Assembly: GCA_963743485.1 (NCBI GenBank)
Contig: CAVUPQ010000004.1
Coordinates: forward strand, 279,292 to 343,291
Source of the DNA: an uncultured Actinomycetota bacterium
GTDB taxonomy: Bacteria; Actinomycetota; Actinomycetes; Actinomycetales; Demequinaceae
DNA length: 64,000 nucleotides
Direction: 5' to 3'
The translations under genes were made by a program, and so were the position numbers. This document shows positions 4,713 through 59,928 of the stretch, piece by piece (within the stretch, counting starts at the first letter, position 1; every line of letters starts with the position of its first letter). The notes beneath the pieces are model-generated. The model was given only the letters and a program-made list of their open reading frames with translations, was not told the DNA's origin and made no database searches.

Positions 4713-6033
4713 CTACGGATGCAGCAGGGCTCGGTAGCCCTCTGTGCCGACGACGTGCAAGGTCGGTGCGGCCTGGGACGGGTCCGTCTGGGAGGGTTCC
4801 GCGCCGTCGGGAGCCTGCCCGGGAAGCAACTCGATCGTCGTCGTCCGGTCGCGAGGTCGGTGAGCCAGAGGAGCCCGTCGCCGCTCACGAGCGCCGTGGT
4901 GCCCGAGGCGCCGAGGCAGTGGCGGAACGGGTGCCCCGTCACGCCGATCGGCACGAGCGAGCCGTCCTTGAGGACGCCGAGCCGGGACGGTCCCCACGTG
5001 ACCTCGACGACGCGCAGGGGGCTGTCGGCGCAGTACCCGGACACGAAGTAGTCCGAGGGGCCGGGAACGCCGAACGTCACCCTCAGTGCCTCCAGGTCGG
5101 CGGAGGGAATGACGTCGGTCGGGGCGGAGCCGTCCACCGGGAACTCCCACACGTCGAGGGCCCCCTTCTCCGTGTAGCAGTACGCGACGAAGGTCTCCCC
5201 GTAGCCCTTGCCGATCATGTAGCAGTCGTCGGTCGCCGACGACGGGATGACCGCCTCGGTTCCGTCGGGGTAGAAGGCCGTGAACCGCGACTCGGGCGGC
5301 GTCTCGAATTCGCTCTGTACCTGGACGTCGCCGACGTCGAAGACCGTGAAGCCGAAGCCCTTGCCGACGATCGACGCGTCGAGCTCGGCGCCGTCGTCCG
5401 TGTACAGCCCGTCGATTCCCTCGCCGTCGCACGAACCCCGCAGCAGCCACGCGCCGTCGCGCGCCGACCCGCGAACGTAGCCCTCGTTGTCGCAGAAGGA
5501 CCAGGTCGCGTCGAGTTCGCCCGTCACGAAGTTGACGACCTTCACGTTCGAGAGGTTGTCGACCAGCGAGCGCCTTGCTCCTGCCGCGTGTCCCACGCGA
5601 CGAGGTCCGGGGTCCCCATTCCGAGCGTGTCGAGGTTCGCCAGCTCGTAGCGGATGCCGTCGGGAGAGATGAGGTAGAGGACGCGCGGTCCAGGCGATTC
5701 GACGCCGGCGTCGTCGATGGCCGTCGCGTCGTAGATCGCGACGACCCACCCCGTCCCACCGACGCGAGCACGTCCTCCGTGAGGAGCTCGCGCGTCCGGC
5801 ACGTGGGGCGCGACCGTGACCTGCCGCTCGACGAAGGCCGGGGGCGGCGTGGGCGACGGGTTCGGCGAACTCGTGGACGAAGGGGTCGGGGACGGCGACG
5901 GGGCGACGGCCTCCCGGGCGAACGGCCCCCACCCGGCGAACCAGGCACCGGCGACGAGCGCCACGACGGCGGCGCCCGCGGCGAGAGCCGCGATCACCTT
6001 CCCGCCCAGCTTCGCCATGTCCCGCTCCTCCAT
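4713..6033 (-). pseudogene. membrane-anchored secreted protein of unknown function, frameshifted
   Basis: The N-terminus MEERDMAKLGGKVIAALAAGAAVVALVAG (TM) plus a Pro/Ser linker and GWVVAIYDAT...RVLYLISPDGIRYELANL lies in ORF 5542..6033. The body VKVVNFVTGELDATWSFCDNEGYVRG...YCYTEKGALDVWEFPVDG...LVSGDGLLWLTDLATG lies in the frame of 4694..6058. The likely C-terminus TTTIELLPGQAPDGAE...GYRALLHP lies in the frame of 4713..5948. At least 2 frame changes. Confidence 0.55.
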
Positions 6034-8200: not shown

Positions 8201-9274
8201 GTGACGTATGCCAGGCTCGCCGATGGCCCGGACGCCGCCATCGCGGCGGCGCTCGCGGGCGACGTCGCCGGGATCGCCGTGGCCACCTCCGGCTCCTCGG
8301 GCGACCCTCGGATCGCGCACGTCGGCGTCGCCGCCCTTCGCGCGTCGGCGAGCGCCACGCACGAGCGCCTCGGCGGGCCGGGCCGATGGTTCCTCGCCCT
8401 TCCCCCCGACCGGATCGCCGGCGCCCAGGTCATCGTCCGCTCGACGCTCGCGGGTCACCGTCCCTACCGGCTCGCTGCGGAGCGCTTCGAATCGGGAGCC
8501 TTCGCGCGGGCGGCCCACGCGGCTCGGGACGAGACCCCGTCCGGCACGCCGCTGTACGCCTCGCTCGTTCCGACGCAGCTCGCCCGAGTCTTGCGGGACC
8601 CGCTCGCCGCGACCGCGCTCGACGCCTTCGACGCAATTCTCGTGGGCGGGGCGGCGCTTGGTTCCGAGAAGCCGCGACCCAACGTGGTCGAGACCTACGG
8701 TTCGACGGAGACGTCCGGCGGCTGCGTCTACGACGGGGTTCCCCTCCCCGGCGTCCAGGTGCGCCTCGGCGCCGACGGGCGGGTCGAAGTGGCGGGCCCC
8801 ACCCTGTTCGACGGGTACGAGGACGGCGAGGACGACGGCACCACCACGAGGGACGGCGTGCGATGGCTCCGCGATGCCGGACGTCGGCGCAGCTTGAGGG
8901 CGGACGGCTGACGGTGTTCGGGCGCGCGGACGACGTCATCGTCACCGGGGCGCACAAGGTGCACCCGGCCGTTGTCGAGCGCGCGCTGGTCGCCCTTCCT
9001 TCGATCGCGGACGCCGTCGTGGTCGCGTCGCCGGACGAGGAGTGGGGCGAGACGGTCGTCGCCGTGGTGGTGGCGGCTCTGCCCGCATCGCCTCCGACGG
9101 CGGGCGCGATCCGCGAGGCCCTCCGGGCGTCACTGCCGCCTCTACGCCCTTCCTCGAGAGGTCGTCATCGTTGGGTCTTTGCCCGTCCTCGACTCTGGCA
9201 AGATCGACCGGAGGGCCGCCAGGGTCCTTGCCCAGGAGACGACGGGAGGCCCGCGTGCCCGCGACGACGCGTGA
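8201..9274 (+). pseudogene. menE: o-succinylbenzoate-CoA ligase (MenE), frameshifted
   Basis: ORF 8201..8911 carries VATSGSSGDPRI (AMP-binding motif), LVPTQL and ETYGSTETSGG. It continues in other frames with RLTVFGRADDVIVTGAHKVHPAVVERAL...VVVASPDEEWGETVVAVVV (8386..9417) and YALPREVVIVGSLPVLDSGKIDRRA (8972..9274). Located between menB and menA. Confidence 0.85.
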
Positions 9275-10131
9275 CTGGATTCGCGGCGCACGCCCCAAGA
9301 CCCTCGCCTCGGCGATCGCTCCCGTCGCCGTCGGCTCGGCGTCGGCGTCGGCCCTCGGCGCGTTCCGTCCGGGAATCGCGGCGCTCGCCCTCGGCGTCGC
9401 TCTCGCGCTCCAGGTAGCGGTCAACTACGCGAACGACTACTCGGACGGCGTCCGCGGGACCGATGCCAACCGCGTCGGGCCGGAGCGCCTCGTCGCCTCG
9501 GGGAAGGCGCGGCCGTCGCGCGTGAAGGCGGCGGCGTTCGCCGCGTTCGCCGTCGGCTCGCTCCTGGGTCTCGCCATGACGGTGCTGTCGCACCAGTGGT
9601 GGCTGCTCGCCGTCGGCGCCGCGGCCATCGCCGCCGCGTGGACCTATACCGGCTCGTCGCGCCCCTACGGCTACCGTGGCTGGGGCGAAGTGAGCGTCTT
9701 CGTCTTCTTCGGCCTCGTCGCGACGCTCGGGACGATGGCCGCGCAGGCGTCCCGCGTCACGTGGTGGGGCGTGCTCGGCGCGGTGGGGGTCGGCCTGTAC
9801 TCCGTCGCGATGCTCCTGGTGAACAACATCCGCGACCTCGAGTCCGACCGAGCCACCGGCAAGCGAACGCTCGCCGTCCGCGTCGGTCCCGGCGCCGCGC
9901 GCCGAATCTTCGCCGCCACCGTTGTCGTTGCCGCTCCTCGCGGGGGTCGGCATCGCCCTCGCGCGACCGTGGGCCCTGCTGGTGCTGATTCTCGCTGCGC
10001 CCGCCGTCATGGTGGCCGTGGCGATGGGCGTCAGCCGCTCGGCGCGACCCCTCTCGGGCGTCTTCGCAGCGGCGAGTGCGCTTGGGCTCGCGTACGGTCT
10101 GCTTCTCGCCCTCGGGATCTGGATCGGCTAG
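9255..10131 (+). pseudogene. menA: 1,4-dihydroxy-2-naphthoate polyprenyltransferase (MenA), frameshifted near the 3' end
   Basis: The GTG at 9255 is in the frame of shadow ORF 9042..11978: VPATTRDWIRGARPKTLASAIAPV...LQVAVNYANDYSDGVRGTD (UbiA-family NxxxDxxxD)...NNIRDLESDRATGKRTLAVR. The last TM helices are in ORF 9922..10131 (LPLLAGVGIALARPWALLVLILAAP...). Confidence 0.85.
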
Positions 10132-18144: not shown

Positions 18145-19534
18145 ATGGACAGGCTTCGCCGGGCGCGCGCGGTCCTCCGCGAGCGGTTCGACGCGGTCGC
18201 GCTGCGATCGCCCGCGCGCCTCGCCATCGCCGCGTTCGCGTCGGTCGTGTGGGCGACGACGGCCCTCCTCGAGCTTCCCGTCGCCACCTCGGCCGGGATC
18301 AGGGCGCCCATTCGTCGACGCGCTCTTCACCGCGACATCGGCCGTGTGCGTGACGGGCCTCGACGACCGTCAACACAGGGACGTACTGGTCGCCAACCGG
18401 CCAGGCCGTCATCATCGTCGCGATCGCGATCGGCGGCCTCGGCATCATGACGATCGCGTCGCATGCTCGGCCTCGCGGCGTCTCGCGCAGGCTGGGGCTC
18501 ACTCAACGCATGCTCGCGGCCGAGGAGAGCCGCGCCTCAGGCCTCGGCGACGTGCGCTCCATGCTCCGCACCATCCTCGTCGTCTCCGCGATCGTCGAGG
18601 TCGGGAATCGCCTGCGGTCCTCTTTTCCCGCCTCCTCGCTACCACGGCTTCAGCGTGCCGCCACGCGGCGTGGCACTCGATCTTCTACGGCGTCTCGGCG
18701 TTCAACAACGCCGGATTCGTGCCCACGGAGGACGGCCTCGCCCCGTTCGCCGCGCGACGTCTGGGTCCGCGCGCCCATCGCCCTTGGGGTCTTCATTGGC
18801 GCGCTCGGCTTCCCGGTGTACCTCAACCTGATCCGGCGCTGGCGCCGCCCCCGCGACTGGTCGCTCCACACCAAACTCACCCTCGTCATGGTGTTCGTGC
18901 TGACGGGGATCTCGACGCTCTCCATCGCGCTTCTCGAGTGGAACAACCCCGCGACGCTCGGGCAGCACTCGGTGCTCGACGCGCCTGTCGGAGATCTTCT
19001 TCATCGGGATCAACCAGACGATCGGGCGGGTTCGCCGCGGTCTCGACCACGCCGGGATGCACGAGCACACGTGGCTCGTCGAGGACGTCCTGATGTTCAT
19101 CGGCGGAGGCTCGGGCGGCACCGCGGGCGGGATTCGGGTGACGACCTTCGCCGTGCTGCATCCTCGCGCTCGTCGCCGAGGTTCGGGGTCGACGCGACGT
19201 CGAGGCGTTCGGCAAGCGCATCGGCACCGAGGTCGTGCGTGTGGCCGTCTCGGTGACGCTCATCAGCCTGTTCATCGTCCTGCTCGGCGCGGGAATGGTC
19301 ACGGCGCAGACGGGGCTCAGGCTCGATCAGGTGCTGTTCGAGGTGGTCTCCGCGTACGCGACGTGCGGCCTGTCCACCGGGATCACCCCGTTCCTTCCCG
19401 CGTCCGCGAAGGTCACCATCACTATCCTGATGTTTGTCGGTCGCCTCGGGAGCGTCACCCTCGCCGCGGCCCTCGCGCTGAACCGTCAGCGGCGCGTCAT
19501 TCGGTACCCGTCAGAAAGGCCGATCATTGGCTAA
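18145..19534 (+). pseudogene. trkH: TrkH-family potassium uptake membrane protein, multiple frameshifts
   Basis: Fragments lie in three frames. N-terminus: MDRLRRARAVLRERFDAVALRSPARLAIAAFASVVWATTALLELPVATS. Then: FVDALFTATSAVCVTGL, AVIIVAIAIGGLGIMTIAS, APIALGVFIGALGFPVYLNLIRRW...HTKLTLVMVFVLTGISTLSIALLEWNN. C-terminus (ORF 19235..19534): FEVVSAYATCGLSTGIT...ILMFVGRLGSVTLAAAL. Confidence 0.85.
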
Positions 19535-20157
19535 CAAGGACACCGCAAACAGCGTCCTCGTCATCGGGCTCGGACGCTTCGGCTCGGCGCTCGCCGACAC
19601 CCTCGACAACCTCGACATCGAGGTACTCGCCGTCGAACGCGACCCCGACCTCGTCGAACGGTGGTCGAAGAGGCTTCCCGTCGTCGAGGCGGACGCCTCC
19701 GACCCCCGCGCGCTCGACCAGCTCGGCGCGAGCGACTTCTCCGCCGCCGTCGTGGGGGTCGGGACATCGCTCGAGGCGTCCGTCCTCATCACGGGCAACC
19801 TGGTCGACATCGGCATCCCCGAGATCTGGACCAAGGCCATCAGCACGGAGCACGCGCGCATCCTCGACGCGCATCGGCGCCCACCACATCGTCCTCCCGG
19901 AGACCGAGTCCGGGCGCAGGGTCGCGCACATCGTCGGCGGGCGGATGCTCGACTACATCGAGATCGAGGACGGGTTCACCGTCGTGAAGATGCGCCCGCC
20001 GCAGGAGACGCACGGCTTCACGCTCGACGAGCTCGCGCTCCAGGACAAGTACGGCGTCCACGTCATCGGCGTCAAGTCGCCCGGCGTCGAATTCGAGTAC
20101 GCGACGCCTCAGACGCGCATCCACAAGGACGACCTGCTCGTGCTCGCGGGCGACTAG
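19527..20157 (+). pseudogene. trkA: Trk system potassium uptake protein TrkA (RCK/NAD-binding), frameshifted
   Basis: ORF 19527..20354 starts MANKDTANSVLVIGLGRFGSALADTL (Rossmann fold). The frame is lost near 19870. The C-terminus RIGAHHIVLPETESGRRVAHIVGG...GVHVIGVKSPG...DDLLVLAGD is in the frame that ends at 20157. Overlaps the trkH stop by 8 nt. Confidence 0.85.
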
Positions 20158-20187
20158 CGAGCTCCTCGACCGCTTCGCGCAGCGCCC

Positions 20188-20956
20188 CTAGCCGGCTTTC
20201 GCGTACGGCCGGCCGAAGCCCGCCGCCCACCACCTCACGGGCACGAGCCGCGCCGCCTTCATCAAGGCCGCCATCGGCCACGGGAAGACGATCTCGAGGC
20301 GTCCGCGCTCCATGCCCCGGACGATCGCCCGGGCCGCGTCGCCCGTGTCGATGAGGAACGGCATGGGGAACTCATTCACCGCCGTCAGTTCGGTCCGCAC
20401 GAAACCCGGCGCGACCGTCGTCACCCGCACGCCGCGCGTCCACAGCGACGCCCTGAGCGACTCGAGAAGCGCAATCAGCGCCGCCTTCGTGGAGCCGTAG
20501 CCTTCGGCGCCCGGGAATCCCCGGAAGCCGGCGACCGACGCGACGCCGACCACGTGCCCGCGCCCGCCGCTCCACCATCGCGGGCAAGGTCGCGGCTAGG
20601 ACGTTGTTGAATCCCAGCAGGTTGACCTCGTAGTGGCGCGCGAAGGCCCCGGCGTCCCAGTCGCTCGCGTCGCTCTGCTTCCAGTAGGCGGCGCACCACA
20701 CCACGGTGTCGATGCCGCCGAGCTCCTGCGCAACCCGCGCGGCGGCGCTCGCGACCGCCGACGCGTCCGTGACGTCAACGGGCGCGACGACCATGCGCCC
20801 CTCCGAGACGCCGTCGAGGAGCTCGCGCCGCCTCCCGCTGATCGCGACGCTGGCCCCCCGGTCAGCAAGGAGCCGCGCGGTAGCCGCGCCGATGCCGCTC
20901 GACGCGCCGACGAACCAAATCCGCTGACCTTTCAGGTCGCGGGTCCAGGACTTCAC
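20188..20956 (-). pseudogene. SDR family oxidoreductase, frameshifted (last gene of 4-gene operon)
   Basis: GTG at 20956: VKSWTRDLKGQRIWFVGASSGIGAATARLLADRG (TGxxxGxG), in the frame of ORF 20372..22078. The frame changes near 20565. The rest is in ORF 20188..20553 (VGVASVAGFRGFPGAEGYGSTKAAL, YxxxK). GTGA overlap with the upstream gene. Confidence 0.8.
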
Positions 20957-22196
20957 GCCGCGCCCGCCTTCTCGAACCGGAACTGGGCCACGTCCAGGTA
21001 GTCCGTCTCGAATCCCGCCTCGCTGTAGGCCAGGTAGAACTCCCAGATGCGCCGGAAGCGCTCGTCGAACCCCAGGGGCTCGATGGCCGCCCAGTTCTGC
21101 GTTGAACGTCGAGCGCCAGCGGCGGAGCGTCTCGGCGTAGTGGTGCCCGAAGTGGAACTGCTCCGTGATCCGCATCGAGGTCCTCGCCGTGCACTCCTCG
21201 ATCGCGCGCACCGACGGGATGAGGCCGCCGGGGAAGATGTGTTTCTGGATCCAGCTCAGCGCGCGACGCGTCACCCGGTACCGCTCGTGGGACATGAGGA
21301 TGGCCTGGACGACGGCGACGCCGCCGGGAGCGAGGAGGCGATCGATCGCGTCGAAGTAGGTCTGCCAGTACTCCTCGCCCACCGCCTCGATCATCTCGAT
21401 GCTCACCACGGCGTCGTACTCGCCGGTGACCTCGCGGTAGTCCTGAATCCGGATGTCGATCCGATCCGAGACCCCGGCGGCCTTCGCGCGGGCCCGAGCG
21501 AGTTCCGCCTGCTCCACGGACAGGGTCACCGTCGTGACGACGGCGCCGCGCTTCGCCGCGCGGATCGCGAGCGTCCCCCACCCGGTTCCGATTTCCAGGA
21601 GCCGCGTACCCTTCCCGACGCGGGCACGATCGAGCGCGGCGTCTACCTTGCGCTCTTGCGCCTCCTGGAGGGTCTGCTCCGCCCATGGCCGCGCGTCATC
21701 GAACATCGCGGAGCTGTACGTGAGCGTGGGGTCGAGGAACTGCGCGAACAGGTCGTTGCTGAGGTCGTAGTGCGCCTCGATGTTCTTCTTGGACCCCTCG
21801 ATCGAATTCCGCATGGACCGCGGGATGCGCTGCTCGGCGAGCGAGCTGATGCGCTGTACCCACATCGGCACGGCGTCGTCGATCACGCGCGCGAACGGAT
21901 ACATCGCGACGGCGAGGTCCGTGCCCTCGCTCGGCCTCCAGTCGCCCTCGACGTAGGCGTCGCCGAAGCCGATCTTGGGCTCGTGGCCGACGCGCCGGAA
22001 GAAGGCGCTCGAGTCGACGACGTCGATGCTCGGCGCTCTCGGACCCCCGCCGCCGAGGATCGTGCCGTCGTCGAGCACGATCCGCGCGTCGACCTTCGGG
22101 AGGACGATCCCGGCGACCTTCCTGGCGACGTAGCCGTGAAGGCAGGGGCGGCGGGTGCTCGCCGCGCATGCATCGGGGGTGGTTCGTGGCGCTCAT
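20953..22196 (-). pseudogene. cyclopropane-fatty-acyl-phospholipid synthase family SAM-dependent methyltransferase, frameshifted at both ends
   Basis: The core in ORF 20372..22078 carries NIEAHYDLSNDLFAQFLDPTLTYSSAMF, LLEIGTGWGTLAIRAA (SAM motif I) and IEMIEAVGEEYW. The N-terminus MSATNHP starts at 22196 in another frame. The C-terminus ...EFYLAYSEAGFETDYLDVAQFRFEKAGAA is read in a third frame ending at 20953. Confidence 0.85.
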
Positions 22197-22950
22197 CGGA
22201 CTGCCTCCTGGGTGTGCGGTGCGCGAGGGTAGACGGGGAGTCGTCGCGCCCACAGCGCGAGGGCGTGGACGCGGATGAGAAGGGTGGTGACGTGCGGCAT
22301 GAGGCCGTGGCGTCGCAATGACTGCGGCGATGGCGCGCGGAGTCGCGGGGCGAGCGGCACCGCCGACGGTCGCGTCGACGACGCGCGCGCCGTCGCGCTC
22401 GAGCCGGACGCCGACCAGAACGTCCCGGGGCGTGACCTTGAGCCGCATCTCGTAGGAGCCTCGCATGTCATTGAAGGGCGAGACGTAGAAGCCCTTCTCC
22501 ACGGTAGCGCGGGCGGCCTCGTCGGGCGAGAGCAGGTACGCGTGGCGCTCGCGGTAGGTGTTATGGACCTCGACAAGCGCCGCGCGAAGTGTGTGGTCCG
22601 CGCGGACGATCCAGAAGGCGGAGAGGGAGTCGAACGCGTATCCGAACATGCGCGCGTGGGCGAGCATCAGCACTCGGTCCGTTGCGTCCATCTGGACGCC
22701 CCGGCGAGCGAGGAACCGCTGCCACGTCGCCGCGGATGCCGCCCCCGCGCCTCCCCCGGTCCAGGTGGTCCTTCGCGTCGAACCTCGCGATCCAGCGCAG
22801 GCCGCGCGGGAGTTGCGGCAGGGCGTCGACGTCCACGAGCCAGTGGTAGTGGCGGTACTTGAACGAGTGGACCGCGGGGCGGTGGCGCGTGTGCGCCACG
22901 TGCCCCACGATCAGCGCGGGGAGGGCGGGAGCCTCGAAGGCGACGGTCAC
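22193..22950 (-). pseudogene. DUF1365 domain-containing protein, frameshifted
   Basis: GTG at 22950: VTVAFEAPALPALIVGHVAHTRHRPAVHSFKYRHYHWLVDVDALP (DUF1365-like start), in the frame of 22561..23328. The middle MLAHARMFGYAFDSLSAFWIV...FYVSPFNDMRGSYEMRL lies in 21696..22691. The end lies in 22193..22576. ATGA/GTGA overlaps with both neighbours. Confidence 0.75.
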
Positions 22951-24265
22951 CGCGTCGCCCCCGCCGGAACCCTCTCCGTGGCGACCTCGCGTCCCTGGAC
23001 GCCCCAGGTCGCCCCGAGGCGCGCGGCGGCCTCGATGCCCGACCGGCAGCCGTCCTCGTGGAAGCCCCAGCCCAGGTGCGCGCCCGCGAAGGCGAGCGTC
23101 GGGCCGCCGGCCTCGCGCAGGCGGGACGCGGCCGCGACCGCCTCGTGGGTGAAGATCGGGTGGCGGTACGTCATCCTCGCGATCACCGAGTCCTCGTCGA
23201 CCTGGTCGCCCGGGTTGAGGGTGACGGCCAGGGTATCGGGAACGTCGACGCGGTGGAGGTGATTCATCCAGTACGTCACCAGCACGCGATCGGCGGGCGA
23301 GTCGCACCCGCGCATGCGGTAGTTCCACGATCCGCGCGCCGCGGGGATCTCGGGCAGAACGGAGTCATCGCGGTGGAGGTACGTGAGGTTCTCGGAGTAG
23401 CCCACCGCCGCGAGGTCGGCGCGCTCGGCGTCCGTGGCGTCCGTGAGGATCGCGAGCGTGTCATCCGCGTGGGTGGCGATGACGGCCTGGTCGTACGCCG
23501 CGACGGTGCCGTCGGCCGCCGTCACCTCGACGCCATCAGGCGTCCGTCGCACGGCGGTGACGGCGCTGTTCGCGCGGACGTCTCCGAGCGCGGCGAGCAG
23601 CTTCTCGACATAGACGCGCGAGCCGCCCACGACCGTGCGCCACTGGGGCGCCCCGAGGAGGCGCAGCAGCCCATGGTGGTCGAGGAAGGCGAACAGGTGG
23701 CGCGCCGGGTAGTTGCGGGTGTCCTCGTCGCCCGAGGACCACACGCACGAGACGAGCGGTACGGCGAAGTGGTCGATGAAGTACCGGGAGAATCCGCCCT
23801 CGTCCAGGAACTCTCCCCAGGTCTGGCGGTTCTCGCCCTCCGCCAGGACGCGCCGGGCCCGGCGGTGGAAACGCGGGACCTCGGCGAGCATCCGGAGGAA
23901 CCGCAGGTCGAAGGCCCGGCGGGGCTGCGGCGAAGATTCCGCGGATGCCGCGCGAGCCGACGTACGACAGCCCGCACCCCTCGCACGTGACGCTCATGCT
24001 CATCTCGGTGTCCTGCGTCGGGAACGTCGAGTTCGCGGAAGATGCGCAGAAGGTTCGGGTACGTCCGCTCGTTGTGGACGATGAATCCGCTGTCGATCGG
24101 CACCTCGGTCCCGTCAGAGAGCAGGACGTCGTGCGTGTGCGCGTGGCCGCCGAAGCGCCGGTCCGCCTCGTAAAGGGTCACGCGGTGGCTGTCCCGCATC
24201 GCGTAGGCGGCCGCGAGGCCGGAGATGCCGGATCCAATGACGGCGACGCTCGGCTTGGTGCTCAT
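22947..24265 (-). pseudogene. NAD(P)/FAD-dependent oxidoreductase (amine-oxidase-like), frameshifted (first gene of operon)
   Basis: ORF 23522..24265 starts MSTKPSVAVIGSGISGLAAAYAM (GxGxxG)...DSGFIVHNERTYPNLLRIF. The frame is lost near 24000. The remainder is in ORF 22947..23891 (RYFIDHFAVPLVSCVWS...GAHLGWGFHEDGCRSG). Confidence 0.8.
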
Positions 24266-24295
24266 CGAACTCTCCCTGCTAGGTGGAACAAACGT

Positions 24296-24345
24296 TAGAC
24301 AGGAACATTAGACATTCCCTAGACATCTTGTCAAGGGTTTGTCTA
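24296..24345. promoter_or_regulatory. candidate CarH/LitR-type operator: three direct TAGACA repeats plus one inverted copy
   Basis: TAGACA occurs at 24296-24301, 24309-24314 and 24320-24325 (spacing 13 and 11 bp). An inverted TGTCTA occurs at 24340-24345. All lie in the 145-bp divergent spacer next to a B12-binding MerR regulator. An AT-rich hexamer repeated four times in 50 bp of about 70% GC DNA is very unlikely by chance. Confidence 0.6.
24305..24334 (-). promoter_or_regulatory. putative sigma-70-type promoter of the oxidoreductase-DUF1365-CFAS-SDR operon
   Basis: On the reverse strand there is a perfect -35 TTGACA (24334..24329), an 18-nt spacer and a -10 TAATGT (24310..24305), about 40 nt upstream of the ATG at 24265. 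The TAGACA repeats overlap the spacer and the -10. Confidence 0.45.
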
Positions 24346-24410
24346 AGATGAGGTCGTTCACTACTGTTCGACCAAGGCCCCCACGACGGGCCCACGACAG
24401 AGAGCTCAGG

Positions 24411-24845
24411 ATGATCCTCGACATTCATGTCCCGACCACCGCGAACCCGAAGGCCGTCTTCGACTACCTCGCCGACTTCACGACGACGACCGAGTGGGAC
24501 CCGGGCACGGTCCAGACGACCCTCGCCTCGGGCCACGGCGGCGTCGGCACCACCTACCTCAACCGGTCCCGCTTCGCCGGGCGCGTGAGCGAGCTCACCT
24601 ACACGGTGATCGAATACGACGCGCCGCGCCTGATCCGGCTCCGCGGCGCGAACGCCTCCGTGACCGCGATCGACACCATCTCCATCGAGACCAAAGGGTC
24701 GTCCTCCGTCGTGACCTACGAGGCGGCCTTCACCTTCCGCGGGATCGCGAAGCTTGCGAGCCCCTTCATGGGTCGCGCGTTCGCCAAGCTGCGGGACGAG
24801 GCCGAGCGCGGCCTGCGCGAGGCGCTCGATGCGCTCGAGGGCTAG
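24411..24845 (+). CDS. SRPBCC family (polyketide cyclase/START-like) protein
   Basis: Inside ORF 24339..24845; the ATG at 24411 gives 144 aa (MILDIHVPTTANPKAVFDYLADFTTTTEWDPG...), the usual SRPBCC size and N-terminus. Alternative starts are 24339 and 24348. Confidence 0.7.
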   Translation: MILDIHVPTTANPKAVFDYLADFTTTTEWDPGTVQTTLASGHGGVGTTYLNRSRFAGRVSELTYTVIEYDAPRLIRLRGANASVTAIDTISIETKGSSSVVTYEAAFTFRGIAKLASPFMGRAFAKLRDEAERGLREALDALEG

Positions 24846-24857
24846 GCGCCGCGACCC

Positions 24858-25845
24858 ATGTACACGATCAAGCACGCGGCCGAGTTGACGGGGGTTCCCG
24901 TCGCGACGCTGCGCGCCTGGGAGAAGCGCTACGGGATCGTCAGCCCTACCCGCTCCGACAACGGCTACCGCGTGTACAGCGACGCGGACGTCGACGCGCT
25001 ACGCAGCATGGACGCGCTCGTCCGCGATGGCTGGACGCCGGCGCAGGCCGCGGCGAAGGTGACCCGGGACGGTGCGCCGTCACGTACCGCCGCAGCCAGC
25101 GCCTCCGCCCCGACTCCCGTGGACCCGGTCTCCCCGGACGACGTTCCTCCCGCCCCGGACGTCCCGCGGCCGCCGGTCGAACGCCTCCCGGCGGACCCGG
25201 GCCACCGCGCCCCCGCCGTCCTGCCCGCGGACATTGAGGAGTTCCTCGACGCCGCGGAGCACATGGACGCCGAGAGGCTCGCGGCCATCCTGAACGACCG
25301 CTTCATGCGGGCGCCGTTCGAGACGACGCTCGACGAGTGGCTCCTGCCCGCGCTGCGGTCGCTCCTCGAGGCGTCGAGCCGTGGACGGATCTCCGCGATG
25401 GCGGAGAACCTCGCCACCCACACCGTCATGCGGCGCGTCGCGATGGCGTTTGAGAGCACGGCACACCCCGAGAATGGGCCGCGGATCGTGGTGGGTCTCG
25501 CTCCTGGGTCGCGCCACGAGCTCGGTTCGCTCTCCATTGCAACGGCCGCGCGGCGGGCCGGGCTCTCCGTCACGTACCTCGGCCGAGACCTCACATATGC
25601 CAGCTGGATCGAGGCCGTCGACGCTCGAAAGCCTGCGGCCGTCGTCGTCATGGTGGTCGAGTCCAAGGACGCCCCGGCCGTCACGGAGGTGCTCGCCGAA
25701 CTGCGGCGCGCGCACGCTGAGCTGCGCACCATCGTCGCCGGCCGCTTCACGCACCTGGTCCCCGATCCGGTCGAGCGCTTCGGACCCAAACTGGGCGCGC
25801 GACACCAAGGCCCTCGCGGCGGAACTCCTCGCCGCGGAGCGCTAG
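24858..25845 (+). pseudogene. MerR family regulator with C-terminal cobalamin-binding domain (CarH/LitR-like), frameshift near the 3' end
   Basis: MerR HTH: YTIKHAAELTGVPVATLRAWEKRYGIVSPTRSDNGYRVYSDADVDAL. After a Pro-rich linker there is a helical-bundle motif W-x9-E (WLLPALRSLLE) and a Rossmann-like B12 domain RIVVGLAPGSRHELGS (HxxG). ORF 24858..26066 loses sense after about 25795. The C-terminus DTKALAAELLAAER is in the frame ending at 25845. Confidence 0.7.
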
Positions 25846-25944
25846 TTCCTGCTCCTCACGGATCCCCTCCCGCAGGAGAGCACGCCTCACGGTCGGGCCT
25901 CACCACGCGTCCCTCACCTATGAACGCCGTGAGCCCGCACGGCC

Positions 25945-26487
25945 CTAGGGCGCCAAGACCTCCCGCGGCGTTCCCTCGCATGGGACCCCGCGCGAGAGGT
26001 TCGCGCTCGAAGACCCGGAGACGATCTCAAGGCAGTAGCCGCCGTTGCCGTCAACGTAGAAGTTGATCGTCGGGTTATCGGACTCGGCCTTGATGATCTG
26101 GTCGCCCACGTAGAAGTTCTCACCGTCAAACACAATGTTGGCGATCACGAGGTCGTCGTGAGCATCCTGGAACTCGCTGATCGCCCTGTCAACGTTGGCG
26201 ACATCCTTGCCGGAACTCCCCGCCCACTCAACAACGACCCTGCCGTCGTCCCAGTTGGCCGCCGTCCAGACTCCCACGCCGACGGTGATCGCCAGCCACA
26301 CGGTGCTCCACACGACCGCGAAGAGGGACATGCCCCGGTTGGTCGCCTGCCCGCGCTTGGCGGCACCGAGGCCAAGGATTCCGAAGATGAGACCGATCAC
26401 TTGGGTTCCGCACAGGAGCGCCGTGATCAGCCCGACGACTCCCATCCAGTTCTTGGACTTGTCCGTGGTGGTGTCCGGCGTTGTCAT
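25945..26487 (-). CDS. DUF4190-like membrane protein with C-terminal extracytoplasmic domain
   Basis: Intact 180-aa ORF with two TM helices (NWMGVVGLITALLCGTQVIGLIFGILGLGAAKRG; MSLFAVVWSTVWLAITVGVGVW). Confidence 0.7.
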   Translation of the reverse strand: MTTPDTTTDKSKNWMGVVGLITALLCGTQVIGLIFGILGLGAAKRGQATNRGMSLFAVVWSTVWLAITVGVGVWTAANWDDGRVVVEWAGSSGKDVANVDRAISEFQDAHDDLVIANIVFDGENFYVGDQIIKAESDNPTINFYVDGNGGYCLEIVSGSSSANLSRGVPCEGTPREVLAP

Positions 26488-26617
26488 CGCTACTTCCTCT
26501 CATTGATGCTTTCCACGGTAGCGAAACTCACGGGCGCCCGCCCGGCCAGTCACGCGGCGGCCACGGAGTGGTAACGGTTGCGCCCAACGATCGCGGCTCG
26601 CCAAGCGTCTCCCTACT

Positions 26618-27607
26618 ATGAACATCATGAGCACACGCACCCTTGCCGCCCCGCGCCGCGCCGGCCGCGGCGCCTTCGTCGCCTCACTCGTCGCCCTTGG
26701 CGCCTTGCTGGCCGGATGCTCTTCCTCGGCCGACGGCGGCACCCTCGCGGGGTACGGCGGCGACGCGGGCTACGCCAACGACGAGCTCGCCAATGCCCCG
26801 GTCGCCCAGACCGACAGGTCCTCGGCAGCCGAGGCCCCACAGGCCACGGCCGCGGACCGGTCCGTGATCATCACGGGCACCATGTACATGACGGTCGAGG
26901 ACCCCATCGCGGCGGCCGACCGGGCCGCCAGCATCGTTCAGAACGCGGGCGGCCGCATCGACGCGCGCAACGAGACCGCGCCCGACGAGCACTACGGCGG
27001 CTCGGCCTCGCTGACGCTGCGGATCCCCGTCGAACCACCTCGACGCGGTGGTCGAGGACCTGCGCACGCTGGGAACGGTGGACCAGTTCAGCACCGACTC
27101 CTACGACGTCACGACCCAGGTAACGGACCTGGAGGCTCAGATCTCGACGCTGCGCGCCTCGACCGGGCGCATCGAGGCCCTGCTCGGCCAGGCCAAGGAC
27201 ATCTCCGACATCATCACGCTCGAGAACGAGTTGGACCGCCGCCAGGCGCAGCTCGAGAGCCTCGAGGCGCAGCAGCGCGGCCTCGACGACCAGGTGTCGA
27301 TGTCGACATCGACCTGTCGCTCACCACCGAGCCGGTCGTCATCGTCGAGGATGACGGCCCCACAGTCCTTCTGGGATGGCCTGGTGTCCGGCTGGGACGG
27401 CGCTCGTGGCCTTCCTCTCGGGCGCGGCGATCGTCGTCGGCGTGATGCTGCCGTGGCTCGTGCCTGATCGCGTCCATCATCGCGGTGCCGGTGGTGCTCG
27501 TCGTGGCCGCGCGCGACGCGAAGTCCGCGCGCCGCGACGCCGAGCCGACGCTGCCCAGCGCGCCAGGCGTCGCGACGCACGACGTGCAGCCCGGGCGGCC
27601 GGCCTAG
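26618..27607 (+). pseudogene. DUF4349 domain-containing lipoprotein, multiple frameshifts
   Basis: ORF 26618..27445 starts MNIMSTRTLAAP...LVALGALLAGCSS (lipobox)...SVIITGTMYMTVEDPIAAADRAASIVQNAGGRIDAR. The coiled-coil part VTDLEAQISTLRASTGRIEALLGQAKDISDIITLENELDRRQAQLESLEAQQRGLDDQV is in ORF 27048..27467. The C-terminal TM segments are in other frames, and the stop is at 27605-27607. Confidence 0.7.
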
Positions 27608-30046
27608 ACCGTCGCAGTCACCTGGACCGTCGCGCCGGCGGGCGCGTAGGGGACGGTGTTGCCCTCGATCGCCTGCCGTCGACCGTGAGCTTCGCGCCCT
27701 TGCCGCCGGAGTTCTTCACGGAGATCACGTAGGTCGCACCGCGGACCTTGCGGGTGCACCGTGAACTCGGCGATCTCCTTGCCGATGCAGGGATCGACGA
27801 CGAGGCCGTCCTAGTCGGCGCGCACGCCGAGGAGGTACTGGGAGACGGTGACGAAGTTCCAGGACGCCGTGCCCGTGAGCCACGAGTTCTTGGCCTCGCC
27901 GTGGCGCGAGGCGTCCTTGCCCGCGATCATCTGCGCGTAGACGTAGGGCTCGAGGCGGTGGACCTCGGAGATCTCCTCGCGGTACGCCGGGGTGATCTGC
28001 TTGTAGTACTCCCACGCGTGCTCGGCGCGGCCGACGATGGTCTCGGCGATGATGACCCACGGGTTGTTGTGGCAGAAGATGCCGGCGTTCTCCTTGTAGC
28101 CCGGGGGGTACGTGGAGACCTCGCCCAGACTCGATGTGGTACTCGGTGTACGCCGGGTTGCTGCAGCACGATGCCGTGGGGAGTGTTGAGGCGCTCCCGC
28201 GCCGAGTCGAGCGCCTTGATCGCCTTGCCGTCGTCGACGCCGATGCCGCCCATGACGCAGAAGCCCTGGGGCTCGATCCAGATCTGGCCCTCGTCGTTCT
28301 CGTTGCGAGCCGACCTTGTTGCCGAAGAAGTCGTAGGCGCGCAGGAACCACTCGCCGTCCCAGCCGTGTGCTCGACGACGGCTCCGTCATGTCCGCGACC
28401 GCCTTCTCGGCGCGCGTCCGCCTCCGCCTCGTCTCCGCGTCGTCGGGCGAGCGCCGCGTAGTCGGGGCCGATCGCGCAGAACATGCCCGCGATGAAGACG
28501 GACTCCGCCACGCCGCCCGCCTGGTTCTCCGTGGTCTGGAAGGACTCGCCAGGGGTCGAGGAGAAGCAGTTGAGGTTGAGGCAGTCGTTCCAGTCCGCGC
28601 GGCCGATGAGCGGCAGCCCGTGCGGCCCAGCGTTGTCGAGCGGGTGGTCGAAGGAGCGCTTGAGGTGCTCCATGAGCGTCTGCGCGCGCGACTCGTCGTT
28701 GTCGAACGGCACCATCTCGTCGAGGATCGCGAAGTCGCCCGTCTCCTTGACGTAGGCGGCGACGCCCGAGGATCAGCCACAGCGGGTCGTCGTTGAAGCC
28801 GCGAGCCGAGCGCGTTGTTCCCGCGCTTGGTGAGCGGCTGGTACTGGTGGTACGCGCTGCCGTCCTCGAACTGCGTCGAGGCGATGTCGATGATGCGCTC
28901 GCGGGCGCGCTCGGGGACCAGGTGCACGAAGCCCGAGCAGGTCCTGGTTCGAGTCGCGGAAGCCCATGCCGCGGCCGATGCCCGGTCTCGAAGTACGAGG
29001 CGCGAGCGCGACATGTTGAAGGTCACCATGCACTGGTACTGGTTCCAGATGTTGACCATGCGGTTGAGCTTGTCGTCGCCCGACTCCACCGTGTACGAGC
29101 CGAGCAGCTCGTCCCAGTACGCGTTGAGCTTGGCGAACTCGGCGTCGGTCGCCTCGCGTCGTGGCGAAGCGGCGTCAGCAGCGCCTTGGCGCCCTTCTTG
29201 TTGATGACGCCCGGGGCCTCCCACTTGTCGTCCTCGGCGTTCTCGAGGTAGCCGAGCACGAAGATGAAGCTCTTGGTCTCGCCCGGGGCGAGCTCCACCT
29301 CGAGCTGGTGCGAGGCGCACGGGTACCAGCCCGATGCGATCGAGTTGCGCGGCCTTGCCCGCGTGCGGCACGGCGGGCTCGTCGAAGCCGTTGCCGTAGC
29401 CGAGGAAGGTGTCGCGGTCCGTGTCGAAGCCCGCGACGGGCGCGTTGACGCCGTAGACCGCGTAGTGGTTGCGCCGCTCGCGGTATTCGGTCTTGTGGTA
29501 GATCGCGCCGTCCTCGACCTCGACCTCGCCGATCGAGAGGTTGCGCTGGTAGTTCGTCTGGTCGTCCTCGGCGTTCCACAGGCAGAACTCGACGAAGCTG
29601 AACAGCGAGAACGTCTTGGCGCGCGTCTGACGTGTTCGTCGAGCGTGACCTGGTGGACCTCCGCGTTGACGTCGACCGGGCACGAAGAACAGGACGCGAC
29701 GCGCGCAGCCCGCCGCGCTCGCCCGTGATCCGCGTGTAGCCCATGCCGTGGCGGCACTCGTAGAAGTCGAGTTCCGTCTTGTACGGGCGGTACGACGGGC
29801 TCCACACGTCGCCGCCGTCGTTGATCGAGAAGATAGCGGCCGCCGTCGTCGACCGGGGCGTTGTTGTAGCGGTAGCGCGTCAGCCGGCGCATCTTGGCGT
29901 CGCGGTAGAAGCAGTACCCGCCGCCCGTGTGCGAGACGAGCCCGAAGAACTCCTGGGAGCCCAGGTAGTTGATCCACGGGATACGGGGTGTGCGGGGTCG
30001 CGATGACGTACTCGCGGGCTTCGTCGTCGAAGTGTCCGAACTTCAT
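27604..30046 (-). pseudogene. GH94 cellobiose (or chitobiose) phosphorylase, many frameshifts
   Basis: N-terminus: MKFGHFDDEAREYVIATPHTPYP (ORF 27725..30046). Further recognisable GH94 segments are scattered over all three reverse frames. They include RYRYNNAPVDDGGRY, WSPSYRPYKTELDFYECRHGMGYTRI, FSLFSFVEFCLWNAEDDQTNYQRNLSIGEVEVEDGAIYHKTEYRERRNHYAVYG, VNIWNQYQCMVTFNMSRS, CLNLNCFS...GESFQTTENQAGGVAESVFIAGMF and GHDGAVVEH...[14 protein letters not shown]. The protein ends ...VQVTATV. Confidence 0.85.
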
Positions 30047-58724: not shown

Positions 58725-59750
58725 ATGTCCACGAAAGACGGCAAACGGGCCCTGATCACCGGCATCACCGGCCAGGATGGAAGTTACCTCGCGGAGCTGC
58801 TCTTGTCGAAGGGCTACGAGGTTCACGGATTCATTCGCCGCGCGTCGACCTTCAACACGTCCCGCATCGACCACATCTACCAAGTGCCGCACACCGCGCA
58901 TCAGCGCCTCTTCCTGCACTACGCCGATCTCGCCGAAGGCTCGCGCCTCGCGCCGCTTCTACGGGAGGTCAACCCGCACGAGGTGTACAACCTCGCGGCG
59001 CAGTCTCACGTGCGCGTGAGCTTCGACGAGCCCGAATACACCGGCGATGTCACGGGCCTCGGGACAACGAGGTTGCTCGAGGCCATCCGCAACACCGAGC
59101 TGGACTGCCGGTTCTACCAGGCGTCGAGCTCGGAGATGTTCGGCGCCACACCCCCACCGCAGAATGAGGAGACGCCCCTCCACCCGCGCTCGCCGTACGG
59201 GGTCGCGAAGGTCTACTCGTACTGGATCACACGAAACTACCGCGAGGCCTACGACCTGTTTGCGGTGAACGGGATCCTCTTCAATCACGAGTCGCCCCGT
59301 CGCGGCGGAACCTTCGTCACGCGCAAGATCACGCGCGCCGTCGCGCGCATCGCCGCCGGCGAGCAGAAGGACCTGTGGCTTGGCAACCTCGACGCGGTGA
59401 GGGACTGGGGATACGCCCCGGAGTACGTCGAGGCGATGTGGCGCATGCTCCAGCACGACGCGCCCGAGGACTATGTCGTCGCAACCGGCACGGCATACAC
59501 GGTCAAGGATTTCGTGCGATTCGCGTTCGAGCGCGTGGGTCTCGACTGGGAGAAGCACGTCAAGTTCGACGAGCGCTACTTGCGGCCCTCGGAGGTCGAT
59601 GCCCTGATCGGCGACGCCTCGAAGGCCGAACGCGTCCTCGGCTGGAAGGCCAAGGTCCACACACCGCGCCTCGCGGAGATCATGGTCGATGCGGACATCG
59701 CCGAACTCGAGGTCGCGGGCAAGCCGTACGTCGATACCGTCGAGCAGTAG
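58725..59750 (+). CDS. gmd: GDP-mannose 4,6-dehydratase
   Basis: ATG at 58725 with GGAGG at 58713-58717, inside ORF 58683..59750. [42 protein letters not shown]. Intact. Confidence 0.93.
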
Positions 59751-59790
59751 TCGCCCGACGCTCCTGGGTTCCGGTAGTCTTTTCAGGCAA

Positions 59791-59895
59791 CGACAGGGGA
59801 GCGCCTCCGTTCAGATTGAACGGGCCAGGGCGCTGAGAGTGCGGACAGCCGCAGACCCTCGAACCTGATCCGGCTAGCACCGGCGTAGGGAGTCG
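59791..59895 (+). promoter_or_regulatory. TPP (THI-box) riboswitch
   Basis: P1 CGAC...GUCG encloses GGGGAGCGCC...GGCGCUGAGAG...ACCCUCGAACCUGAUCCGGCUAGCACCGGCGUAGGGA, which matches the conserved THI element core (CUGAGA, ACCUGAUC.GG..A..CC.GCGUAGGGA). It is followed by a hairpin CCUCC(59906-59910)/GGAGG(59917-59921) that can sequester the SD of the ATG at 59929. Confidence 0.85.
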
Positions 59896-59928
59896 AGACT
59901 CGTCCCCTCCTTACGAGGAGGATTCACC

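Follow-up and report, generated by a model that had tools for sequence, protein, structure and literature searches.

A five-repeat operator and a CarH-family regulator with a degenerate adenosyl-cap motif at a UfaD/UfaO-like operon of an uncultured actinobacterium

We analyzed a divergent spacer and a CarH/LitR-family regulator gene in a 64-kb stretch of DNA (hereafter the window; contig CAVUPQ010000004.1) from an uncultured Actinomycetota bacterium of the Demequinaceae. The 145-bp spacer (24266-24410) lies in this high-GC actinobacterial window between a minus-strand operon and a plus-strand SRPBCC gene, and the regulator gene follows the latter. The spacer holds five repeats of the CarH type, which overlap the hexamers of two face-to-face promoters, one of them a candidate. 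The regulator has the CarH fold, and residues expected around the adenosyl group of adenosylcobalamin (AdoCbl) are replaced. It very probably represses both divergent promoters by occluding them through the five-repeat operator. By analogy with CarA of Myxococcus, we favor, at a probability of about 0.55, a repressor that combines this occlusion with no dependence on the adenosyl group and that is released by another input.

Five repeats form a palindromic operator

The hexamer TAGACA occurred only four times on both strands of the window (4.7 expected window-wide). All four copies were within 50 bp (24296-24345), indicating clustering far beyond chance. Three were on the plus strand (24296-24301, 24309-24314, and 24320-24325; spacings of 13 and 11 bp) and one was on the minus strand (24340-24345). 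An earlier reading of the window, referred to here as the original prediction, had reported these four copies and spacings, and they proved to be the only ones in the window. TTGACA on the reverse strand (24334..24329), previously read as a -35 hexamer only, was recognized as a fifth copy. The five 11-bp-type repeats share the consensus AAACnTTnGACA and have the orientation + + + - -. They are listed below with their weight-matrix scores. The variant loci are the window locus and those of its three close relatives, and P_ox is the promoter of the oxidase operon.

24290..24303 (core TAGACA 24296-24301), plus strand: operator repeat R1, AAACGTTAGACAGG; 17.2 bits, ranking second in the 64 kb; identical in all four variant loci; near +1 of P_ox
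24303..24316 (core 24309-24314), plus strand: operator repeat R2, GAACATTAGACATT; 12.9 bits; 13 bp after R1; overlaps the -10 of P_ox
24314..24327 (core 24320-24325), plus strand: operator repeat R3, ATTCCCTAGACATC; 9.8 bits; 11 bp after R2; in the P_ox spacer; the same as the candidate -35 of the SRPBCC/regulator promoter
24327..24340 (core TTGACA 24334..24329), minus strand: operator repeat R3', AAACCCTTGACAAG; 18.2 bits, the best in the window; invariant in the four variant loci; its core is the -35 of P_ox
24338..24351 (core 24345..24340), minus strand: operator repeat R4, TCATCTTAGACAAA; 10.8 bits; 11 bp from R3'; overlaps the candidate plus-strand -10 TAAGAT
24356..24372, plus strand: conserved block GTTCACTAnnGTnCGAC, past the last repeat; inside the core of 89% identity; kept in all four variant spacers

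A repeat finder returned an 18-nt inverted repeat (24308-24325 / 24329-24346; TTAGACAttcccTAGACA tct TGTCAAgggttTGTCTAA). The operator core is a 39-bp palindrome (24308-24346), in which R4 is the mirror partner of R2 about 24327. The R3 core reads TGGACA in the variant loci L004 and L006. The block after the last repeat could mark the start of the leader, serve as an alternative -10, or represent a pseudo-repeat, the sixth in the row.

A 14-nt weight matrix (consensus AAACCTTTGACAGA) was built from 64 distinct spacers of canonical relatives, with the variant clade left out. Its T and ACA positions were fixed by site selection, and the AAACC flank is independent information. Scanning the 64 kb gave 10 matches of at least 8 bits. 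Five of them were the spacer sites, including the two best. The matches at 58802 and 58846 were rejected as operator sites and attributed to chance; they are inside a coding sequence (58726-58960, plus strand) that by eye resembles GDP-mannose 4,6-dehydratase. Those at 19597, 29012, and 37141 were rejected as isolated single sites. No other matrix matches clustered, and no second operator was found in the 64 kb.

The spacer core (24286-24372) had a mean identity of 89% among the four variant loci, and the remaining spacer had 36%, with indels. Synonymous sites of the adjacent regulator gene differed by about 50% among the same loci, indicating that the core is a genuine footprint. In the 64 distinct canonical spacers, TGTnnA pairs exactly 11 bp apart were counted 72 times, compared with 0.12 in shuffles, and the distances peaked again at 31 and 42 bp. 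Outside the spacer, about 1 Mb of related loci had nearly all of its tandem clusters in two places, immediately before the regulator gene or about 450 bp after it. Repeat clusters also adjoined the regulator gene in loci without the oxidase and SRPBCC genes, suggesting that the repeats travel with the regulator. The original prediction had taken the TnnACA repeats as the family operator overlapping the promoter of the oxidoreductase operon; the 11-bp pairs and the five sites recovered by the matrix bear this out. The check on orthologous spacers that it had proposed also turned out positively, with repeats conserved among the variant loci and in distant relatives.

Characterized CarH operators follow nnnnTnnACAn with an 11-bp period, with three repeats in Thermus and four in Bacillus, and have the -35 inside a repeat (PMC9304148). 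The promoter-occlusion geometry that had been proposed for the window matches these published operators with the -35 in a direct repeat (PMC9304148). The nearest canonical relatives carry two tandem repeat pairs in a single orientation, 41-43 bp apart. The + + + - - palindrome is specific to the variant clade.

A second tandem 11-bp cluster was observed about 450 bp past the regulator stop in seven related loci (L059, L064, L066, L069, L076, L081, and L082). In L066, it is at 8420-8444, just upstream of a DUF6454 gene (8575-9645). Canonical regulators of Knoellia/Intrasporangium-type genomes probably have a second operator in this cluster before the DUF6454 gene.

Two promoters face each other in the operator

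24305..24334, minus strand: P_ox; -35 TTGACA (24334..24329), 18-nt spacer, -10 TAATGT (24310..24305); 39 nt between the end of the -10 and the oxidase start codon
24320..24349, plus strand: candidate SRPBCC-regulator promoter; -35 TAGACA (24320-24325), 18-nt spacer, -10 TAAGAT (24344-24349)

TTGACA-N16-19-TAnnnT was present on the oxidase strand in 63 of the 68 distinct spacers (0.00 expected). TTGACA at the -35 position of P_ox was conserved family-wide. The -10 in the variant loci was TAATGT, TAATGT, TAATCT, or TAAGGT, all fitting TAnnnT and ending 38-39 nt before the start codon. With these sequence patterns, P_ox is well supported as the promoter of the oxidase operon. The original prediction had named the same two hexamers, and this promoter stood; its "perfect -35", however, is itself an operator repeat.

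The plus-strand candidate was the sole sigma-70-like match that the scan tool returned in 24000-26200 (0.1 expected). Its hexamers were conserved in the variant loci, and the nearest canonical relatives carry TGTCTAAGGT with a TAAGGT -10. It is a candidate promoter, and TTGTCT (24339-24344)-N17-TACTGT (24362-24367) may serve instead.

P_ox and the plus-strand candidate are mirror-symmetric about 24327. Each -35 is inside the spacer of the other promoter, and each -10 is in the flank of an outer repeat. As the palindromic core carries the hexamers of both promoters, a bound protein would exclude RNA polymerase from both. A classical MerR-type activator, a dimer on a palindrome in a 19-20 bp spacer, was considered and rejected. 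The operator spans about 60 bp, the promoter spacers are 18 bp, and the C-terminus is a CarH-type cobalamin-binding domain with no MerR coiled coil.

The regulator belongs to the CarH/LitR family

24858..25845, plus strand: CarH-family regulator, about 329 aa, after removal of one extra base at 25797-25800; the open reading frame (ORF) as written runs to 26066
Residues 1-71: MerR winged helix-turn-helix
Residues 72-122: Pro-rich disordered linker
Residues 123-200: four-helix bundle
Residues 206-312: Rossmann domain

Compared with the three close relatives, the regulator ORF has one extra base at 25797-25800. Its removal restored the conserved C-terminus with a stop at 25845. The end at 25845 given in the original prediction is therefore right only after this correction. 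The spacer of 145 bp was also found as described, and the SRPBCC gene (24411-24845), which had been passed over, lies between it and the regulator gene.

Pfam analysis gave a MerR_1 match (E 1.2e-16) and a B12-binding match (PF02310, 33.3 bits; cut-off 32.1), and PF02607 scored 19.8 bits, below its cut-off of 23. The best PDB sequence matches in a phmmer search were Thermus LitR/CarH structures (3WHP and 5C8D, E about 4e-23). A 3D structure was modeled with AlphaFold 2 from 108 sequences, with a predicted local distance difference test score of 89.5. The model has a winged helix, a disordered linker, four helices, and a beta-alpha Rossmann domain. All top 50 Foldseek matches were CarH/LitR or CtMerR cobalamin-binding domains (TM-score about 0.8, root-mean-square deviation 2.6 Å), and the top ones were chains of Thermus thermophilus CarH (TtCarH). 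By sequence and modeled fold, the regulator is a member of the CarH/LitR family; the MerR and B12 domains assigned to it originally were recovered in Pfam, in the PDB alignments, and in the fold. Its recognition helix, LRAWEKRYG, belongs to the RxWERRY type and shows a single conservative R-to-K change when compared with 76 of the 78 relatives. The NCBIfam CarH equivalog model gave 113 bits against a cut-off of 400, a score that is uninformative for membership, as the model appears narrow.

The Pro/Ala-rich linker (25069-25223, residues about 72-122) appears by eye to be longer than in most canonical relatives. It evolves fastest in the protein and is still constrained, with a ratio of nonsynonymous to synonymous substitution rates (dN/dS) of 0.17-0.35.

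The adenosyl-cap motif is degenerate

25374..25409, plus strand: degenerate cap motif S173-x9-E183-N184; aligns to TtCarH W131-x9-E141-H142 (phmmer to 5C8D/3WHP; MAFFT)
25365-25367, plus strand: L170, replacing G128 (alignment to TtCarH)
25515..25517, plus strand: His220 in GSRHELG, equivalent to TtCarH His177, the lower axial cobalt ligand

W-x9-E-H was intact in all of the 78 more distant syntenic regulators (the canonical relatives) and was lost only in the window protein and its close relatives (the variant clade). G128L, W131S, A139M, H142N, L152V, and P203T (Thermus numbering) were present in all variants, at positions that were at least 97% conserved in the 78 canonical sequences. GG to AG and LGH to FGP were further variant-wide changes at positions of the same conservation. 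The signature of light-responsive cobalamin-binding domains is GxxW, EH, GxxH, and GxxxP (SignatureFinder), and its Trp, its Glu/His, and the Pro of the neighboring monomer contact the adenosyl group (PMC11796333). The window protein reads LxxS/EN/GxxH/GxxxT instead of GxxW/EH/GxxH/GxxxP, so that three of the four elements are broken. CarH homologues have been defined by Wx9EH together with the B12-binding motif (Elías-Arnanz/Padmanabhan group; PMC8156234, PMC9304148). With neither Wx9EH nor the full signature, the protein is outside CarH in the strict sense. The B12-independence of CarA has been attributed largely to the absence of Wx9EH (PMC8156234, PMC9304148).

Other residues were kept. 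His220 was invariant in the 78 canonical and four variant sequences, as was Gly223. The variants also retained the equivalents of the R176/D201 pair, G192, and E141.

The original prediction had identified WLLPALRSLLE (W161-E171) as the Wx9EH motif of CarH. Four independent alignments placed this segment on TtCarH L119-E129, and the true motif is 12 residues downstream. W161 is near-invariant in the family and was invariant among 15 aligned sequences. The Ser before the His had likewise been taken for a variant feature. It occupies the D/E position of (D/E)xHxxG, where Ser or Ala dominate and Ser is the commonest residue in the family. The proposal of a distinct photochemistry or a light-independent sensor lost this motif argument and gained another, because the equivalents of G128, W131, H142, and P203 are replaced in this clade only. 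The protein thus is an unusual family member, for stronger reasons than those first given. Since the cap residues are all replaced, dark-state repression relieved by AdoCbl photolysis became the least likely part of that earlier reading.

The variant clade is rare and its sensor domain is remodeled

Only three close relatives (about 81% identity, 322-332 aa) were found among 5.8 billion proteins. When 1.84 billion 50%-identity representatives were searched exhaustively with HMMER, the variant clade was a single cluster (E 1.5e-103), and the next was at 41% identity. In a neighbor-joining tree rooted with Thermus, the clade was monophyletic with a long stem, nested in the actinobacterial family, and sister to the regulators of L007, L008, and L010.

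Near-invariant columns were changed at 6 of 13 positions in the bundle, 5 of 17 in the Rossmann domain, and 1 of 25 in the DNA-binding domain. The identity between variant and canonical proteins was 0.38 in the bundle and 0.39 in the Rossmann domain, whereas canonical pairs at equal divergence of the DNA-binding domain had 0.54 ± 0.07 and 0.48 ± 0.05, respectively. Judged by these sequence identities, the sensor domain has diverged out of proportion to the DNA-binding domain. Within the clade, dN/dS was 0.06-0.14 in both sensor subdomains (dS 0.5-1.3), indicating that the remodeled domain is maintained by selection.

Both W and H were missing in two of the 150 best 50%-identity representatives, the variant clade and P0250 (GCANGHGP). 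Cap loss is thus rare but recurrent. The P0250 lineage (L085-L087; L086 and L087 from GCA_030161535.1) is an unrelated CarH-like one with GxxC where the signature has GxxW and AN where it has EH. Its regulator gene (5001-5879) encodes a WEKRY recognition helix and is followed by a DUF2505 gene. It is divergent to an idi/crtE-crtI-crtB operon, and the spacer has a tandem 11-bp operator with TGTCGA/TGTCTA 11 bp apart.

The target operon and its neighborhood

20188..24265, minus strand: target operon encoding oxidase, DUF1365, cyclopropane fatty acid (CFA)-synthase-like, and short-chain dehydrogenase/reductase (SDR) proteins (Pfam; tblastn against the intact genes of the relative locus L001)
about 22953-24265, minus strand: flavin adenine dinucleotide (FAD) amine-oxidase/UfaD-like gene (Pfam Amino_oxidase/NAD_binding_8)
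about 22311-22950, minus strand: DUF1365/UfaO-like gene (Pfam DUF1365)
about 21095-22177, minus strand: CFA-synthase-like methyltransferase gene (Pfam CMAS)
about 20209-20956, minus strand: SDR gene (Pfam adh_short)
24411..24845, plus strand: SRPBCC (Polyketide_cyc2) protein, 144 aa (Pfam E 2.1e-16); the gene ends 12 nt upstream of the regulator gene

The intact L001 counterparts of the oxidase, DUF1365, CFA-synthase-like, and SDR genes encode 438, 251, 413, and 251 aa, respectively (tblastn). The three contigs of the close relatives share this layout without a broken gene: the SDR, CMAS, DUF1365, and oxidase genes are on one strand, and the spacer separates them from the SRPBCC and regulator genes. 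A scan for related loci, with one genome per species, gave 80 loci, and about 70 of them have the same six-gene arrangement. Hosts include Terrabacter, Intrasporangium, Humibacillus, Janibacter, Nocardioides, Nostocoides, Actinotalea, and many metagenome-assembled genomes (MAGs). The six-gene module is widespread in actinobacteria, and the window copy is a peripheral member. In about 70 of the 80 loci, the SRPBCC gene is directly 5' of the CarH-like regulator gene and co-oriented with it; the protein could be a pathway component, a lipid carrier, or a signaling partner.

UfaD (FAD oxidoreductase, RSP1091) and UfaO (DUF1365, RSP1090) convert methylated fatty acids to furan fatty acids that scavenge singlet oxygen (PMC7380195). 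Their genes head a five-gene operon of the singlet-oxygen regulon of Rhodobacter, and its other products have 402, 186, and 245 aa (PMC7380195). With adjacent FAD oxidoreductase, DUF1365, and CFA-synthase-like genes, the window operon is classed as UfaD/UfaO-like by sequence. Pfam domains, gene order, and gene sizes suggest orthology. A literature search for CarH with cyclopropane, photolyase, or genomic context gave no result.

The genes of the window locus include neither a second MerR-B12 gene nor crt genes. Long minus-strand antisense ORFs (24279-24875 and 24965-25789) were set aside as probable high-GC artefacts, because the plus-strand ORFs have clear family matches. No terminator was found in a scan of 24000-26200. 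Rfam and tRNA scans detected no cobalamin riboswitch or other B12-related element; they returned only a thiamine pyrophosphate (TPP) riboswitch, as follows.

59785-59908, plus strand: TPP riboswitch RF00059, 64.7 bits (gathering score 54.3)

A proposed mechanism and its alternatives

From the observed anatomy, conservation, and motif loss, we propose the following. The spacer region 24286-24372 would be the operator and double promoter of the repressor encoded at 24858-25845, which would be co-transcribed with the SRPBCC gene. Bound repressor oligomers would block RNA polymerase at both promoters and switch off two transcription units at once. One unit is the putative UfaD/UfaO-like fatty-acid-modifying operon (oxidase, DUF1365, CFA-synthase-like, and SDR), and the second is the operon of the repressor itself. 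Most relatives would have this module under the control of a canonical AdoCbl photoreceptor. In the narrow variant clade, the cap residues equivalent to G128, W131, H142, and P203 became L, S, N, and T, respectively, and the lower-ligand His and the dimer and tetramer contacts were kept. The variant may oligomerize and bind DNA without the adenosyl group, like Myxococcus CarA, and a different input would release it.

Several points weigh against this proposal. The module, canonical or variant, is known from sequence alone, and we infer repression, B12-independence, and the nature of the signal. Mixed repeat orientation has no characterized precedent among CarH operators, which are tandem, and the binding stoichiometry is therefore a guess. 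The neighbor-joining tree carries no bootstrap values. No antirepressor candidate was found, with no search made with a CarS sequence, and CarS homologues have been reported only in myxobacteria (PMC8156234). The retained lower-ligand His, GxxH, and Rossmann fold are under purifying selection, and the protein may still bind cobalamin and respond to light or B12. Since CarA keeps the same features, their retention does not discriminate between the readings. Finally, frameshifts interrupt all four target genes in the window, and the window regulator is frameshifted near its C-terminus.

These frameshifts (in the oxidase, DUF1365, SDR, CMAS-SDR, and regulator genes) might mean that the locus is decaying, with the regulator and the four target genes as pseudogenes and the repeats as a relic. 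The oxidase gene is split into 22953-23927 / 24020-24265, the DUF1365 gene into 22311-22721 / 22759-22950, and the SDR gene into 20209-20562 / 20510-20956. However, unrelated neighbors, TrkA (ORFs 19527-20354 and 19057-20157) and ORF 27725-30046, are equally broken, and the close relatives, from long-read MAGs, have all genes intact; the frameshifts are thus best explained as assembly indels. Pseudogenization specific to the locus was set aside on this ground. The clade is also under strong purifying selection and its operator is conserved, and we consider decay very improbable. Throughout 19057-30046, there was roughly one frameshift per kb, a pattern of unpolished long-read assemblies rather than of pseudogenes. 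It is even harder to believe that another regulator binds the repeats and that the CarH-like protein acts elsewhere. The pairing of this protein with the repeats does come from sequence comparison only. Nevertheless, the clusters track the regulator gene even in loci without oxidase and SRPBCC genes, the TnnACA half-site and the 11-bp period are those of characterized CarH operators (PMC9304148), and the recognition helix RAWEKRY is of the RxWERRY type.

Which signal the regulator receives is a separate matter. An ordinary AdoCbl-dependent photoreceptor (class I LitR/CarH), repressing in the dark and released on light cleavage of the Co-C bond, would fit the fold, the family-type operator, and the presence of His220 as lower ligand, of the E141 equivalent, and of the salt-bridge pair of the dimer; the same locus in 78 relatives encodes full-signature proteins. 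We regard it as improbable for the window protein. All 78 relatives (100%) have the Trp and His of Wx9EH, the Gly of GxxW, and the Pro of GxxxP, and the window protein has other residues at each of these four positions; the four have been described as critical for AdoCbl binding, oligomerization, and DNA binding (PMC8156234, PMC9304148, PMC11796333). At the G128 and A139 positions, the larger side chains of Leu and Met are directed into the region of the upper face. Another possibility is that the protein binds cobalamin via His220 with a small upper ligand (methyl-, hydroxo-, or cyanocobalamin), as a sensor of B12 availability or a photoreceptor with a different photochemistry. At a dN/dS of 0.06-0.12, the clade has retained the Rossmann fold along with His220, GxxH, and the Gly of HxxG, and cap loss removes the adenosyl contacts specifically and spares the corrin-binding scaffold (PMC11796333). 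On the other side, GG became AG, 5 of the 17 near-invariant Rossmann columns changed, and the Leu in place of Gly128 may conflict sterically with the corrin. Sensing of B12 status has no obvious logic for a photo-oxidative lipid operon, and CarA keeps the motif without using the cofactor (PMC8156234). This small-ligand sensor seems to us possible but rather unlikely.

A more far-reaching version, which we put forward as doubtful, is that an actinobacterial lineage independently turned an AdoCbl photoreceptor into a new sensor. Larger residues would have filled the adenosyl pocket (G to L, A to M), or other substitutions would have re-tuned it (W to S, H to N, P to T). At the same time, the operator's tandem repeats would have become a palindrome through which two face-to-face promoters are silenced. 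As its new input, the sensor might use another ligand in the old B12 site or a signal passed on by the SRPBCC lipid-binding protein, whose gene would invariably be co-transcribed with its own. If true, neither CarS nor B12 would be needed, and lipid photo-oxidation would be linked directly to the production of furan-type fatty acids as protectants.

Comparison with known systems

CarH is the founding member of the B12 photoreceptors, and optogenetics makes wide use of it. The window regulator resembles CarH/class I LitR of T. thermophilus, Bacillus megaterium, and Myxococcus xanthus in its two-domain architecture and fold; the best PDB matches were 5C8D, 5C8E, and 3WHP, and the cobalamin-binding domain superposed at a TM-score of about 0.8. 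The regulator has kept the lower-ligand His, the interface Gly, and the Arg and Asp of the dimer pair. The operators share 11-bp TnnACA repeats and a -35 hexamer inside a repeat, the predicted targets are photo-oxidative protection genes, and the regulator appears autoregulated. The differences are Sx9EN for Wx9EH, LxxS for GxxW, and GxxxT for GxxxP; a palindromic operator of five repeats in mixed orientation instead of three to four tandem repeats; a UfaD/UfaO-like lipid operon as the predicted target instead of carotenoid genes; and an SRPBCC gene apparently co-transcribed with the regulator.

To our knowledge, CarA is the only characterized CarH-like protein that has abandoned AdoCbl, and it needed extra factors. 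Like the variant, CarA (M. xanthus and related Cystobacterineae) has lost the cap Trp and kept the classic B12-binding motif (PMC9304148). It also occludes its promoter through a large multi-repeat operator. Unlike CarA, the variant keeps the motif length and E and loses H. The CarA clade is restricted to Cystobacterineae, occurs in tandem with carH in the carB operon, and needs the myxobacterial CarS, whereas the variant arose separately inside the actinobacterial CarH-like clade.

In Burkholderia, cfa-type lipid genes and photolyase are reportedly among the targets of class III LitR. Class II/III LitRs (Pseudomonas and Burkholderia) are family members without AdoCbl use, and their light-inducible targets include ufaM (PMC9758184). 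The class II LitRs of Pseudomonas control ufaM (PMC9758184), which sets a precedent for a light-stress regulator on a protective lipid pathway. In class II proteins, the four-helix bundle alone is left and a LOV protein acts as the partner, and the C-terminus of class III is unrelated; the variant, in contrast, has a complete bundle and a Rossmann domain (PMC9758184 for class II). Class V LitR of Micrococcales, compared by description only, lacks the B12-binding domain that the variant has (PMC9758184). RSP1091-RSP1087 of Rhodobacter sphaeroides is similar in gene order (FAD oxidoreductase, DUF1365, about 400 aa, and about 250 aa) and in its link to photo-oxidative stress (PMC7380195). It differs in being controlled by sigma-E/ChrR, an extracytoplasmic function sigma factor and its anti-sigma factor, with no CarH-type repressor.

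If the AdoCbl-independent repressor is the right reading, the locus would be a second, independent natural experiment in AdoCbl abandonment beside CarA. As the variant and the 78 canonical relatives share the DNA-binding domain, operator half-site, regulon, and synteny, the few sensor changes would be testable by residue swaps. In many Actinomycetes (Terrabacter, Intrasporangium, Janibacter, Humibacillus, Nocardioides, Actinotalea, and others), canonical CarH-type regulators are found on a UfaD/UfaO/CFA-synthase/SDR operon plus SRPBCC and not on carotenoid genes. CarH-type regulators on this lipid operon predict a B12- and light-controlled synthesis of furan or methylated fatty acids in Actinomycetes.

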